IMG/VR virus record: IMGVR_UViG_3300029286_001647
Origin: a virus
Direction: 5' to 3' (one strand)
DNA: 43,509 bases
Below, piece by piece: positions 39,061 to 43,034 of this stretch (its first letter is position 1; each line of letters begins with the position of its first letter). Position numbers and translations under genes: made by a program. The notes under the pieces were generated by a model. That model was given only the letters and a program-made list of their open reading frames with translations. It was not told the origin of the DNA and did not search any database.

Positions 39061-39780
39061 CTACGGTTTCTTTTTAGTCATTGTGATGGTGTAAAGTTCA
39101 TTATCCTTGAAAAACATAGTTTGTGTTCCCTTATGGCACAATTTCATATCACTACTAATAGCAGGATCGTCAATGACTTTGATATCAGGAGCATCTCTCT
39201 TCGCCAAGAAAATCTCCATCTTCTCATCTTCATTGATATGCGCACAGATACCGCTATCAAGAACGGTGAAGTTCAATTCATTAGTTGCCACATCAGCGAC
39301 AACCCTAACGTCATAGCTTCCATAATCAGATGCAAAGCGCAAGATAAACTTATCATATTTGCCTTTCTTCGCGGCGATAATCATTAGAACGCCTTTATCG
39401 AACTTGGCATTGATTATCTTATAGCCTTGAAGCTCTTTGACTTGAGTCTGGTAATGGACTCCCGCCTTGGGGAATACAGAAGCAAACCAAGAGCCAAGAA
39501 CGTCCTGAATAACAACTCCATCAAACATCTGAGTTGCTTTCTCCAGAACGTTCGCTACCGCCTTGATCGTGGAGAGAATCATTGTTCCTACTTCAACAAA
39601 CTGGACTTCGTGAACATCGCAGTGATTCTTAACATACAAGCGACCTTGGTAAGACATCATTTGTTCTGCTGCGATACTCGACTGCAATACTTTACGTCCT
39701 GTGCTGTCATAGATAATCGCTTTCCCATTCTCTATCTTGGCAGCGATAACGTGGAGGAGTTTCGAGTAATCGCTATGCAA
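39061..39780 (-). CDS. hypothetical protein (TTG start at 39780 or ATG at ~39660)
   Basis: ORF track; overlaps the kinase 3' end. Confidence 0.4.
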   Translation of the reverse strand: MHSDYSKLLHVIAAKIENGKAIIYDSTGRKVLQSSIAAEQMMSYQGRLYVKNHCDVHEVQFVEVGTMILSTIKAVANVLEKATQMFDGVVIQDVLGSWFASVFPKAGVHYQTQVKELQGYKIINAKFDKGVLMIIAAKKGKYDKFILRFASDYGSYDVRVVADVATNELNFTVLDSGICAHINEDEKMEIFLAKRDAPDIKVIDDPAISSDMKLCHKGTQTMFFKDNELYTITMTKKKP

Positions 39781-40751
39781 GAATCAGCAGTGACATTATC
39801 ATCAAGCTTATTGTTGGCGAACAACCCGCCTTTTGTAAGGATGACAGGTGTTCCGTCAATAAACCCGTAGTAGAGGATATCATCGCTCATTGTCTGCGAC
39901 AGATCGATAAGGAAGTTATTACTGCCTTTAATCTGTTTAACGGCGGTGGCGACGAAGATAACCGCCTGGAGGTCTTTCGGAGGAGGAAGGCGCTTCCCAT
40001 CTTCAAATACAGCCTTATACCATGCCCTATAGTTATCAGGGATAACAGTAAAGGGACGGCACATCGCGGGAAGAATAACGCCATTATGGAAGACAGAGAT
40101 GTTTTGCTTCATTCTGTCATCCATTTCTTTGACCTTGGGATAACCGCCGCGATAGGGGTGAATCCCTATAAACATCTGGAATGTCACAATTCCCCAAGAG
40201 AACCAGTCCGTTTCTCTCGAAAAGACTTTAGAATGTCTATCACGAATGTTATCCATAATGACTGTGGCAGGAAAGCTACGAGTTTGATAACTGTCAACGT
40301 CGATAAAATAGACATCATCAAACTTGTTGTCAACAAGAAAGTTCAGCTCGTTATAATCGACAATGATAATGTCTTTACTATGGATGTATTCAGTCCCTTT
40401 TTGCATATTACGGACCATACGGATGACCATATCATTTGTGAAGTTGTTTTTTGTGCGGAAATCTTTCGTAAAGGTCTGGCAAAGTGCATGAGTATTCTTT
40501 ACGAACCTCATTGTATATCCAACAGGATTGTTTTTCGAATCCATAAGGATGTCTTGAGGACCAATGATATAAGGCTCAGAAGTGATTGGCGCAAGTTCTT
40601 GAATCTTGGCGACAGGTATCATACAAGCAGGATCAAGGTAAATCTTAAATGCAGTAGACCCTTGAGCATAAACAGCGCCCTGGCCTCCTTGCGCTAGGAA
40701 ATCGTTCTTATTAAGATCAACCGGACCTTTGCCTTTAATGTAGTATTTCAC
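39732..40751 (-). CDS. protein kinase-like (Hanks-type fold)
   Basis: Gly-loop 'AQGGQGAVYAQGSTAFKIY', catalytic-loop-like 'IVDYNELNFLV', 'YFIDVDS'; GTG start. Confidence 0.55.
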   Translation of the reverse strand: MKYYIKGKGPVDLNKNDFLAQGGQGAVYAQGSTAFKIYLDPACMIPVAKIQELAPITSEPYIIGPQDILMDSKNNPVGYTMRFVKNTHALCQTFTKDFRTKNNFTNDMVIRMVRNMQKGTEYIHSKDIIIVDYNELNFLVDNKFDDVYFIDVDSYQTRSFPATVIMDNIRDRHSKVFSRETDWFSWGIVTFQMFIGIHPYRGGYPKVKEMDDRMKQNISVFHNGVILPAMCRPFTVIPDNYRAWYKAVFEDGKRLPPPKDLQAVIFVATAVKQIKGSNNFLIDLSQTMSDDILYYGFIDGTPVILTKGGLFANNKLDDNVTADSCIAITRNSSTLSLPR

Positions 40752-41097
40752 GATTGCGCCTTTCTTTCTGCATCTGTAATTTCTTCCTTATCAAATAAGG
40801 AAATTCCAGAAACTCTTGTCCAGAGCCGCTACCTTTTTTCTTATTACAAGAACGGCAAGCCAATACAGTATTATTCTCATCAGTGCGCCCACCGCGTGAC
40901 ATAGGAACAATATGGTCTAACGTTGTATCTCTGTCACCAAAACACAATGTTTTTCCACACCAGTGACATTCATTTTTCCCGGCGGAAAAAAGAGATTTCT
41001 TGATCTCGATACGAAGATCCATCTCCTCTGCCCATTTTGCTCTACGTCTATTATCCATTTTCTCATCCAAAATAAATCGTCGCCGCCGTGAAGTCAT
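40735..41097 (-). CDS. HNH endonuclease
   Basis: 'CHWCGK...DHIVPMSRGGRTDENNTVLACRSCNKKKG'. Confidence 0.75.
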   Translation of the reverse strand: MTSRRRRFILDEKMDNRRRAKWAEEMDLRIEIKKSLFSAGKNECHWCGKTLCFGDRDTTLDHIVPMSRGGRTDENNTVLACRSCNKKKGSGSGQEFLEFPYLIRKKLQMQKERRNREILH

Positions 41098-41923
41098 CAG
41101 CGTGGAATCTATTCTTCTTTGCACATTCTTCAAGGTACTGTTTGATCCTTCGATGGACGAATTGCCCGTTGTACCCTTTGAATTGCAAAGCATCCCTTAC
41201 GATAGTCTCGCAAGGTATTGCCTCTGTACTCTTTGATGTCTCTGTGATGAGAAGATCATAGAACGATTGAGCGCCGTCAGTCATTATAGTCGCCCACTCG
41301 TAATTGGCAGTATTAAGAGAACATTCTATAGGAGCAAAAGGCAGACAAGTTCTAAGATCTCCAACGAAATCATCAGCCTTGACAGTTCCATCTTTTCCCA
41401 CGATTACGCTATTTACTTCTGATATGCCATTACTCACTTGAAGCAAACTATCTCTCCTTGCGCTATCGATGCGATAAGACAGATAGATAGGATAATTGCA
41501 AGGGCTTGTTATAACAGCAACGAAAATGCTTCCTCCACGATCCTCTCTATTCTTGGCGACGATAACTCCATCACCATAAACAGTAAAAACGGCTTGTGCT
41601 CGATTTGCCCTCATAACCATCAGAGTAGCATCAGATGCCATCGGATTCAAACCAAGGCTATTGATTTTGTCTCTGACGTTCATGGCGAGGACATTGCCAT
41701 CAATTTCTTTCTCGCATTTGCAGATTTTCTCTGCTTCAAGCGTCATGATACGAGCGCCGCAATCTGTATCGGGGCTGGACGAGCATCCATCAGAGACAAT
41801 AGCGTAGACTGTATCGACTGTATCGCCAACACGCGCATAGTCCTGACAGACAAGATGTGTTTTGCCGATGAAGTAAGCACAATCGGCACGAAAGTTCTTT
41901 TTGTCTACTTCTTTTTTCGCCAT
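41063..41923 (-). CDS. PP2C-family Ser/Thr phosphatase
   Basis: 'VYAIVSDGCSSSPDTDCGARI', 'ATLMV', 'VYGDGVI', 'TDGAQSF'. Confidence 0.6.
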   Translation of the reverse strand: MAKKEVDKKNFRADCAYFIGKTHLVCQDYARVGDTVDTVYAIVSDGCSSSPDTDCGARIMTLEAEKICKCEKEIDGNVLAMNVRDKINSLGLNPMASDATLMVMRANRAQAVFTVYGDGVIVAKNREDRGGSIFVAVITSPCNYPIYLSYRIDSARRDSLLQVSNGISEVNSVIVGKDGTVKADDFVGDLRTCLPFAPIECSLNTANYEWATIMTDGAQSFYDLLITETSKSTEAIPCETIVRDALQFKGYNGQFVHRRIKQYLEECAKKNRFHADDFTAATIYFG

Positions 41924-41925
41924 TT

Positions 41926-42138
41926 TTATTCGGCTTTCTTTCCGCAGCAAGTGCAAATGACAACCCATTCTTTCGCAGAAAGAGAATCTAATAGATCATC
42001 GATAGATACATAATCATCATCTATAGAATCTCCCATCGAGGTAATCAACTCAGGCGTAGGAGGAGTTATCCTGATCAAAAACCTCTCAAAACAATGATCG
42101 CCACCATCGCGGCATGATTTTTTGTTAGATCCAAACAC
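41926..42138 (-). CDS. small hypothetical protein (70 aa)
   Basis: ORF track. Confidence 0.35.
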   Translation of the reverse strand: MFGSNKKSCRDGGDHCFERFLIRITPPTPELITSMGDSIDDDYVSIDDLLDSLSAKEWVVICTCCGKKAE

Positions 42139-42230
42139 AGTTCAAATCCTTATCTTTTACCCCCGGTCTCTCATCGCTGAGAAACCGGGGGCATTGCGAC
42201 CAACCTCAAGAAAGACAATTGCGAAACGAA

Positions 42231-43034
42231 TCAGATCGTCAGAGAACCGCCCGGAGCAATCGGCTGGCTCGGTCCGCCGCTGCCGACCTTCTGGCTCTGC
42301 GCCGAAGTGGATTTGCTGATGTACTGTGCCAGTTTCGCAAATCCCTTCGGAGAAACATCTTTGACGAAAATGAACTCGCCAATACCAGCATCAGTCTGGA
42401 ACTGCTTCAGATACTGGATGAAGCTGGAGTTCGGGTCATTGTCCGGCGCGAGAGCAACTACCATCGAAACCAGCGATTCGAGATCTTCGCTCTTGATCGC
42501 CTTTCCAAGCGCCTTCTTGACAGTCCCAGCGGTAGTACCGTTGCGAGATCCTTGATTATCTTCACCATCCGTGATAATCACAACGATGCCGTTGCTGTCG
42601 TATCCATTCGACTTGAGATCCTTGGCGTAATCCGTTTCCGCCAGAATCGCATTGGCAGCGGCTTCGTATAGCGCCGTGGAACCATAGGCGCTGAGCTTGC
42701 CGGTGTAATCCGCGGGATTGCACGTTGTCGAGAGCTTGAAACCATGCAGCTCAGTCGCGACATCATTGAACGTGATGATACGGAAAAGCAGATTGTCACG
42801 GCGCGGGTTCTGAGGAAGATTGTTCGCATCAACAATAGCGGCGATAGTCTTCTCAATCTGGTCAACGTATCCGCTCACGCTGCCGCTAAGGTCAACGACA
42901 AGCGTGACGAGAGTATACGTTGACGCGCCGAGATCTGCGAGATCGACTGCGGAATACCCAAACGAGCTTCCGCTGAGGGCATGGCTGTTGAGACCTTCAT
43001 TGAGGCTCTGGCTGATGTTCTGGCTTTTTCCCAT
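42231..43034 (-). CDS. von Willebrand factor A domain protein
   Basis: MIDAS 'VVDLSGSVSG', 'GSTALYEA', 'IVVIITDGEDN'; GAAGGAG ribosome-binding site. Confidence 0.75.
   Translation of the reverse strand: MGKSQNISQSLNEGLNSHALSGSSFGYSAVDLADLGASTYTLVTLVVDLSGSVSGYVDQIEKTIAAIVDANNLPQNPRRDNLLFRIITFNDVATELHGFKLSTTCNPADYTGKLSAYGSTALYEAAANAILAETDYAKDLKSNGYDSNGIVVIITDGEDNQGSRNGTTAGTVKKALGKAIKSEDLESLVSMVVALAPDNDPNSSFIQYLKQFQTDAGIGEFIFVKDVSPKGFAKLAQYISKSTSAQSQKVGSGGPSQPIAPGGSLTI

Follow-up and report, generated by a model that had tools for sequence, protein, structure and literature searches.

The window analysed here is an entire viral contig of 43,509 nucleotides (nt), IMG/VR record IMGVR_UViG_3300029286_001647, and all coordinates are positions within it. 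At its far end lies a co-directional cassette of four genes encoding a PncA-like nicotinamidase, a vWA protein of the YegL/TerY type, a PP2C phosphatase and a Ser/Thr kinase. The same order recurs in huge phages and in several bacterial phyla, and the vWA-PP2C-kinase triad is linked to the nicotinamidase and repeatedly embedded in the pathway that leads from nicotinamide to nicotinamide adenine dinucleotide (NAD+). We propose, with somewhat better than even confidence, that the cassette encodes a phospho-switch resembling TerY-P that is tied to the salvage of nicotinamide and the regeneration of NAD+.

An earlier note, made from the sequence of the window without database searches, had described a block of kinase, HNH endonuclease, PP2C and vWA genes at 39732-43034 and placed it among bacterial signalling and conflict systems. 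The observation was real, its boundaries and two of its details were wrong, and its interpretation was broadly right for three of the four genes. Absent from it were the frameshift in the kinase gene, the beta-propeller, the nicotinamidase partner and the link to Preiss-Handler NAD+ salvage. What is newly brought out here is the linkage of a TerY-P-like triad to nicotinamidase and NAD+ salvage, together with its propeller-bearing kinase.

Layout and conservation of the cassette

Every gene of the window lies on the minus strand, and the start positions match the gene calls of a sister contig. The region of interest holds the following features, with lengths in amino acids (aa), listed in the direction of transcription:

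43075..43509, minus strand: PncA-like nicotinamidase, C-terminal 144 aa; gene cut off by the window end
42231..43034, minus strand: vWA protein of the YegL/TerY type, 267 aa; Pfam VWA, metal ion-dependent adhesion site (MIDAS)
41926..42138, minus strand: orf70, 70 aa; lineage-specific insertion between the vWA and PP2C genes
41063..41923, minus strand: PP2C (PPM) Ser/Thr phosphatase, 286 aa; PF13672 and fold
40735..41058, minus strand: free-standing HNH endonuclease, 107 aa; PF01844; at the PP2C-kinase junction
39061..40751, minus strand: Ser/Thr kinase, 563 aa when intact; Hanks-type kinase domain and seven-bladed beta-propeller
39763..39764, no strand: 1-nt deletion (missing C) that splits the kinase into 40751..39732 and 39780..39061
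38999..39014, minus strand: terminator-like hairpin, a consensus scan match 47 nt past the kinase stop

Read along the transcript, the contig as assembled thus runs from the nicotinamidase fragment through vWA, orf70, PP2C and HNH to the kinase open reading frame (ORF) and a second ORF of 239 aa. All four domains named previously are present. Promoter and terminator scans of the region gave no more matches than expected from shuffled sequence, and the hairpin is a possible, weakly indicated end of the operon.

A scan of IMG/VR with a kinase alignment as query gave 80 loci, most of them on contigs of 50-550 kb, and when the window proteins were placed on them by tblastn, nicotinamidase, vWA, PP2C and kinase appeared in the same order in nearly all. 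Alignment queries were needed, since the kinase or PP2C sequence alone found nothing in IMG/VR. After removal of duplicates, 102 distinct viral loci remained; all four genes were present in 93 of them, colinear on one strand in 87, and compact without inserts in 38. A bacterial scan, covering one genome per prokaryotic species, yielded 80 distinct loci, with all four genes in 41, colinear on one strand in the same number, and compact without inserts in 38. The suggestion that vWA, PP2C and kinase genes travel together is well borne out by these counts. Matches by tblastn to the HNH gene, orf70 and the downstream genes of the window were limited to contigs of the same phage. The earlier note had named a kinase fold without support and a lack of relation among the ORFs of homologous phages as grounds for refutation; these do not apply to vWA, PP2C and kinase, and they do apply to HNH.

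Carriers of the cassette comprise huge phages and some Armatimonadota, Acidobacteriota, Myxococcota and Desulfobacterales. Among bacteria, the four-gene order was found in Capsulimonadaceae (closed chromosomes included), Chthonomonadaceae, Pyrinomonadaceae and Blastocatellia, as well as in Myxococcota and Desulfobacterales. In INPHARED, the records with a kinase match are uncultured huge-phage genomes alone, and both full-length matches (genomes of 595 and 485 kb) carry the ordered cassette.

It could be argued that the genes are unrelated and stand side by side by accident, given the general mosaicism of phage genomes, which is all that speaks for such a reading. Yet more than 120 independent loci keep the order, with proteins 30-55% identical, in phages and across several bacterial phyla. 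The adjacency thus goes far beyond what chance would give, and the synteny refutes an accidental arrangement. The obligate partner of the triad is the nicotinamidase, whose gene immediately precedes vWA in 73 of the 80 viral loci and 51 of the 80 genome loci. Conversely, a reciprocal scan that started from the nicotinamidase and counted viral loci with enough flanking sequence found vWA, PP2C and kinase within 10 kb in 70 of 74. Nicotinamidase, vWA, PP2C and kinase form one conserved and presumably co-transcribed cassette.

The nicotinamidase and its NAD+ salvage context

Of the four cassette proteins the nicotinamidase, about 265 aa at full length, is the best conserved, with 45-70% identity between phage and bacterial copies. 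In the family alignment the catalytic residues D9, K154 and C204 are kept, as are the metal ligands D52xH54 and a WPxH121C motif. A profile search of the PDB with the family returned nicotinamidases and related cysteine hydrolases only; the best match was yeast Pnc1 (2h0r, 5.5e-14), and the PncA enzymes of Pyrococcus, M. tuberculosis and Acinetobacter were among the others.

Further enzymes of the same pathway accompany the cassette. On a closed Capsulimonadaceae chromosome it lies amid leuB, leuA, serpin and PAS histidine kinase genes, and PncB, a nicotinate phosphoribosyltransferase, directly follows the kinase. When the ORFs that interrupt phage cassettes were clustered, three families recurred, all of which exceed the curated NCBIfam cut-offs:

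PncB: TIGR01514, 433-470 bits (cut-off 270)
NadE, glutamine-dependent: NF002730, 795 bits (cut-off 473)
NadD: TIGR00482, 115.5 bits (cut-off 112.45)

Across the 87 colinear viral loci, PncB was found in 28, NadD in 14 and NadE in 10, and at least one of the three lies between cassette genes in 13. The fullest arrays, at L204, L205 and L245, read PncA-vWA-PncB-NadE-PP2C-NadD-kinase. Even on three IMG contigs (L004-L006) whose kinase homologues have no PP2C or vWA gene beside them, a NadD-like gene lies 2.8 kb downstream.

Elsewhere the window carries cargo related to NAD, ADP-ribose and RNA repair, at 1408-2325, 20775-21977, 29621-30118 and 30996-32012, all on the minus strand. The families are an ADP-ribosylglycohydrolase, an RtcB ligase, NADAR and a CoaBC-like DFP protein with an adjoining flavoprotein, and this cargo fits an NAD-centred lifestyle.

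The kinase and its beta-propeller

Taken as it stands in the window, the kinase ORF (40751..39732) scores 31.4 bits against Pfam Pkinase, just below the cut-off of 31.7. The best 120 homologues are all about 560 aa long. The closest (P0001) is 563 aa, 100% identical, and runs on past the seeming stop into the ORF of 239 aa: ...CIAITPKLLHVIAAK... When the window was compared with L001 (ENA k141_668752), a contig of the same phage, the sole difference in 14,450 nt was one missing C, and that C is also present in two further independent assemblies, L002 and L003. Given the length of the homologues and the C in the sister contigs, the kinase gene is 40751..39061 and includes the 239-aa ORF at 39780..39061. 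The end of the block at 39732, as first drawn, is therefore an artefactual stop. The split in this contig is an error of the assembly or else a rare variant. Programmed frameshifting was considered and rejected, since three other assemblies have one extra C and differ in nothing else; an alternative genetic code was rejected on the same extra C.

Alignment of 29 homologues, a check that had been called for along with the kinase claim, showed the catalytic and metal-binding residues to be invariant. These comprise G22, G23 and G25 of the Gly-rich loop, K36 and E52, D132 and N137 at the catalytic site, and D151, which binds metal; S154 and T157 of the activation loop and a DWFSxG-type subdomain IX motif are invariant as well. 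An AlphaFold model of the kinase (predicted local distance difference test score, pLDDT, 88.8) has a kinase fold at approximately aa 1-255. In its C-terminal half, 28 beta-strands form seven four-stranded blades at approximately aa 280-558. Foldseek matched the model to LRRK2, which combines a kinase with WD40, to many protein kinases, and to the propellers Hsv2, BamB and DDB1. Model and structural matches together confirm the kinase fold, and the protein is a Hanks-type Ser/Thr kinase with a C-terminal seven-bladed beta-propeller. Among viral models, the combination of kinase and propeller had a sole match, one uncultured Myoviridae protein. NCBIfam and PHROGs gave weak matches for the kinase and nothing informative for vWA or PP2C.

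On L004-L006, contigs of 123-167 kb, there is no PP2C, vWA or nicotinamidase gene within 8 kb of the kinase homologue. Its neighbours there are TnpB/IS605-type genes, DNA methyltransferases, Gad2 and the NadD-like gene.

The phosphatase and the vWA protein

PP2C is recognized by PF13672 at 37.1 bits (cut-off 24; E 3.1e-9). Its AlphaFold model has a pLDDT of 91.6, and all top structural matches in the PDB are PPM phosphatases; the leading Foldseek matches are PPM1K, TAP38, Stp1, RsbX, SpoIIE, PstP and PppA. The earlier note had singled out the string 'SDGCSSSPDTD' as a sign of non-canonical metal-binding residues. The string is there, and the metal site is canonical: in 36 homologues D28 (in xCQD), D45-G46, D216-G217 and D276-D277, the acidic ligands of the family, are invariant. 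'DGCSSS' is equally invariant in these 36. Because it is invariant and the canonical ligands are kept, it is a signature of this PP2C family rather than decay, and the metal site is not degenerate.

Two invariant cysteines, C26 and C47 (gene at 41063-41923), flank metal-binding aspartates in the contexts vCQD and DGC, and could form a redox-sensitive or thiophilic-metal site. In the cultured Armatimonadota Capsulimonas corticalis (AP025739; L167, 10001-10831) a PP2C gene of this family adjoins polyphosphate kinase and PAP2 genes and stands alone, the kinase and vWA genes being absent from its vicinity.

The vWA protein matches Pfam VWA at 25.7 bits (cut-off 23.8; E 1.5e-5), and its MIDAS motif DxSxS...T...D is intact, with D48xSxS52, T120 and D156 conserved. 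It ends in a conserved Ser-rich tail, LAKLAxFVSxSISSQSQxLGTGGPSQ, in which S240, S242, S244 and S247 are invariant. Many homologues bear the label 'uncharacterized protein YegL' from the Joint Genome Institute. Sequence-profile searches of the PDB with the PP2C and vWA families returned nothing. The active sites of vWA, PP2C and kinase are all intact to judge from the alignments, and we predict three catalytically competent proteins.

Relation to TerY-P and other known systems

The closest described relative in terms of gene content is TerY-P, which in its Ter/CoCoNuT type combines a TerY-like vWA protein and a PP2C with a Ser/Thr kinase that carries a fused zinc ribbon at its C-terminus, and which in its anti-phage versions has the kinase fused to an OB-fold (PMC11090510). 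TerY-P has been predicted to act as a metal-dependent phospho-switch. The summary in PMC11090510 traces the triad to Anantharaman et al. 2012 and Gao et al. 2020 and, citing the latter, lists it as a defence system. Ter systems also associate with phosphoribosyltransferases (PMC7824862).

Our cassette shares with TerY-P its three components, their order vWA-PP2C-kinase, their common direction and their tight linkage: in compact loci the PP2C gene abuts vWA, and the kinase gene abuts or overlaps PP2C. The vWA protein is of the YegL/TerY type with a MIDAS and a Ser-rich tail. It differs in that the kinase ends in a seven-bladed beta-propeller (C-terminal 280 aa) instead of a zinc ribbon or OB-fold, and in its nicotinamidase partner, its NAD-salvage context and its place in the core of a huge-phage lineage. 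PADLOC TerY-P models matched neither the vWA, PP2C and kinase of the window (E<=0.01) nor 22 members of the vWA family. Because of this lack of a TerY-P match and the propeller C-terminus, we do not file the cassette as a TerY-P member. The block probably works like a TerY-P triad and lies outside TerY-P proper, failing tests of both sequence and architecture.

Directly upstream of the kinase gene in five loci there are small ORFs of 60-85 aa that encode zinc ribbons of the CxxC...CxxC type (L062 9799-10023, L070 9813-10001, L143 9772-10023, L084 9716-9937 and L035 9543-9740). They recall the zinc ribbon fused to TerY-P kinases, and orf70 also has Cys pairs.

The likeness raises the question of whether the cassette might itself be a stand-alone anti-phage defence of TerY-P type, by which a huge phage excludes competitors and bacteria gain immunity, with the nicotinamidase either incidental or an effector that removes nicotinamide. 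The same three genes in the same order make up a reported defence system (PMC11090510, citing Gao 2020), the kinase has weak PADLOC matches to the defence kinases PD-T4-6 and mad6, and the cassette occurs in phages and bacteria alike. However, the TerY-P models of PADLOC match neither the window proteins nor the 22 vWA relatives, and the kinase carries a propeller where a defence kinase would have an OB-fold or zinc ribbon. The cassette also behaves as a vertically conserved part of the huge-phage lineage, the Capsulimonadaceae copy sits among housekeeping genes and in no defence island, and the neighbouring PncB, NadD and NadE build NAD+ rather than deplete it. We therefore regard a defence function as unlikely.

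A second parallel is found in Escherichia coli, whose yegL-pphC-yegI cluster (10.1101/819920, 10.1101/303594) has the same gene order as vWA-PP2C-kinase. Comparison by hhalign related the kinase to YegI with a probability of 97% (E 1e-10, 286 columns), and PP2C to PphC with E 9e-5 and a shared layout of xCQD, DGxxS and GDG motifs; the match of vWA to YegL is weak and full-length (E 6e-4, 174 columns), including the Ser-rich tail. Identities are about 20%. YegI differs from the cassette kinase in its length of 648 aa, in a C-terminal part that has been the subject of membrane-topology assays, and in that no beta-propeller has been described for it, and the E. coli cluster, unlike the cassette, has no nicotinamidase neighbour.

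Some jumbo phages are reported to make NAD+ and to carry a complete set of salvage or Preiss-Handler genes (PMC11662467), and the NARP1-3 pathways use other enzymes, namely Adps/Namat, Nampt/Nmnat and PnuC/NadR (PMC13464706). Text searches of the two papers found no kinase, phosphatase or vWA module described with their NAD+ pathways. Reviews of jumbo-phage and viral NAD systems, in the part of the literature covered, do not describe the cassette. Relatives of the window phage resemble the NAD+-making jumbo phages in carrying the full set of PncA-like enzyme, PncB, NadD and NadE, whereas the nicotinamidase fragment is the sole NAD-salvage gene of the window.

Reversible control by similar parts is also known from the threonine-phosphorylation pathway of the type VI secretion system (T6SS), which employs the kinase PpkA with its vWA domain, the PP2C phosphatase PppA, and Fha1. 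The cassette shares the scheme of Hanks kinase, PP2C and vWA as a reversible switch, and PppA is among the structural matches of its PP2C; it differs in having no membrane kinase and in its vWA being a separate protein. No FHA or T6SS families were seen among the scanned window genes or in the gene tables of related loci.

A model for the proposed switch

We propose a model where the kinase phosphorylates Ser or Thr residues, the most obvious candidate target being the Ser-rich tail of the vWA protein, with the adjacent NAD-salvage enzymes as further possible targets. The beta-propeller probably serves to bring in a partner or to sense a ligand, possibly before the kinase acts. The MIDAS of the vWA protein would read or clamp an acidic or phosphorylated ligand, and PP2C would reverse the phosphorylation and so reset the system. 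The switch might thereby tune how nicotinamide enters the Preiss-Handler route (PncA, PncB, NadD, NadE), such that NAD+ is regenerated during infection or stress. Depletion of NAD+ is one of the main strategies of bacteria against phages, and such regeneration could matter, for instance, once nicotinamide is set free by NADase immunity or by phage enzymes that consume NAD. We infer what the switch acts on, in which direction it controls and which physiological end it serves.

A more specific version, which we put forward tentatively and at clearly less than even confidence, is a regulated NAD+-regeneration operon: a switch hard-wired to a diverged nicotinamidase that senses nicotinamide release or NAD+ depletion and turns resynthesis on. 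In its full form, such an operon would interleave the switch genes with the whole Preiss-Handler pathway, and it would be shared by huge phages and hosts of Armatimonadota or Acidobacteriota type.

Several points weigh against a switch coupled to NAD+ salvage. The kinase is frameshifted in this contig, and its substrates are putative. Kinase homologues occur without PP2C or vWA, in L004-L006 and in Thiotrichales loci, and Capsulimonas corticalis has its lone PP2C homologue. The nicotinamidase scores 28-31 bits against the NCBIfam PncA cut-off of 174 and has an insert of roughly 50 aa; since it falls below that cut-off and carries the insert, we assign it to a diverged subfamily, and nicotinamide is its presumed substrate. 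PncB, NadD and NadE were not found in the 43.5-kb window, a contig that ends inside the nicotinamidase gene, and they lie within 10 kb in about one third of phage loci. The coupling may therefore be to the nicotinamidase alone, and the proximity of NAD genes could be partly regional, as phage genomes cluster auxiliary genes.

In a different interpretation, the kinase serves host takeover in the style of T7 gp0.7: it would phosphorylate host proteins early in infection, PP2C and vWA would limit or target its activity, and the link with NAD genes would reflect a shared early or auxiliary gene region. A phage-encoded kinase with an intact active site, a beta-propeller that could recruit host substrates and further auxiliary genes around the kinase would all suit this role. 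The same four-gene cassette is, however, compact and conserved in bacterial chromosomes, where takeover would be senseless, and the adjacency of nicotinamidase and vWA persists across phyla. We find host takeover improbable, more so than defence, and return to the phospho-switch coupled to NAD+ salvage.

Triads of vWA, PP2C and kinase resembling TerY-P are widespread, and the reconstitution of NAD+ by phages is a current topic. If the regulated NAD+-regeneration operon is real, it would be the first phospho-regulated metabolic pathway for counter-defence in phages and would give a function to a TerY-P-like triad. A triad family with a fixed enzymatic partner turns the label 'signalling or conflict' into a testable question, namely whether phosphorylation gates NAD+ salvage. 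Similarly, a regulated Preiss-Handler pathway in huge phages would, if true, extend the picture of phage NAD+ reconstitution.

Insertions between the cassette genes

The HNH gene had been counted as a member of the block. Its product matches PF01844 at 48 bits (1.3e-12) and many PHROG HNH families, and its motif CxxC..DH..N..CxxCN is complete. The gene begins 4 nt beyond the end of PP2C, and its own end extends 17 nt into the start of the kinase gene. It is confined to the contigs of this phage (L001-L003) and absent from about 180 distinct related loci, so its membership in the block falls away; no paralogues were found when they were sought in the window. Where relatives are compact, the PP2C gene overlaps the kinase gene or ends no more than about 20 nt from it, and just 3-60 nt separate vWA from PP2C. 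Other phages have GIY-YIG or LAGLIDADG endonucleases, or assorted small ORFs, at the same junctions.

Homologues of orf70 were found in L001 and L002 alone, contigs of the same phage, and the profile libraries scanned gave no family matches. A conserved small ORF was sought in the vWA-PP2C gaps of about 300 nt in several loci, and the ORFs there were unrelated to orf70 and to one another. Both genes are missing from more than 150 related loci and are lineage-specific insertions, HNH probably a selfish one, each presumably without a role in the cassette.

Could the HNH protein instead be the nuclease effector of a four-component conflict system, controlled by kinase, PP2C and vWA? It is packed tightly between PP2C and kinase, with overlapping ends, and its catalytic motif is intact. 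Its restriction to contigs of one phage, out of about 180 other distinct loci without it, stands against such a role, as do the unrelated homing families GIY-YIG and LAGLIDADG in equivalent gaps elsewhere. E. coli K-12 provides an analogous case, where the unrelated yegJ splits pphC from yegI, two genes that overlap by 4 nt in B strains. An effector role thus seems very improbable.

Free-standing HNH homing endonucleases of phages carry the beta-beta-alpha-Me HNH motif. The window protein resembles them in this motif and in its sporadic, tight insertion between conserved genes, and differs in being very small (107 aa) and in having no recognizable DNA-binding module; homing is putative. Homing endonucleases and small ORFs may pepper a conserved phage operon without destroying it.

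Neighbouring genes

Downstream of the kinase lie genes for PspA and for proteins of 251, 237 and 275 aa; their membership in the cassette was weighed and rejected because they are not conserved with it. The 251-aa protein (38180-38935, minus strand) has a signal peptide, a long Ser/Gly/Pro-rich stretch and a C-terminal transmembrane helix; relative to the window, L002 has an 18-nt insertion here, and the L002 gene calls differ downstream of the kinase. The 275-aa protein (36594-37421, minus strand) ends in a Gly/Ser/Tyr/Cys-rich repeat (GGSSYDGGSSYDGGGCSDCGGGCGGGD) and has no family matches. A phage-encoded homologue of the membrane-stress protein PspA/IM30 follows at 35838-36518 (minus strand). 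At 34644-35783 (minus strand) lies a GluR0-like ligand-gated potassium channel (SBP_bac_3 4.6e-30, Ion_trans_2 4.8e-14), in which the periplasmic-binding-protein domain is interrupted by the Ion_trans_2 pore. A blastn search of 36000-43509 against INPHARED phages gave no match.

Base composition varies along this part of the window: G+C content is 0.49-0.52 at 36000-39000 and 42000-43000, versus about 0.40 across most of the window, and the vWA and nicotinamidase genes are richer in G+C than those of PP2C, HNH and kinase.

Farther away, a 758-aa protein at 14965-17241 (minus strand) matches the Major Vault Protein shoulder (6.9e-28) and a Vault_3 repeat (1.4e-11), which is unusual in a phage. 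In one related locus (L169), an 855-aa vault homologue lies just upstream of the cassette PP2C gene, preceded by two unannotated genes at the positions of the nicotinamidase and, probably, the vWA gene.

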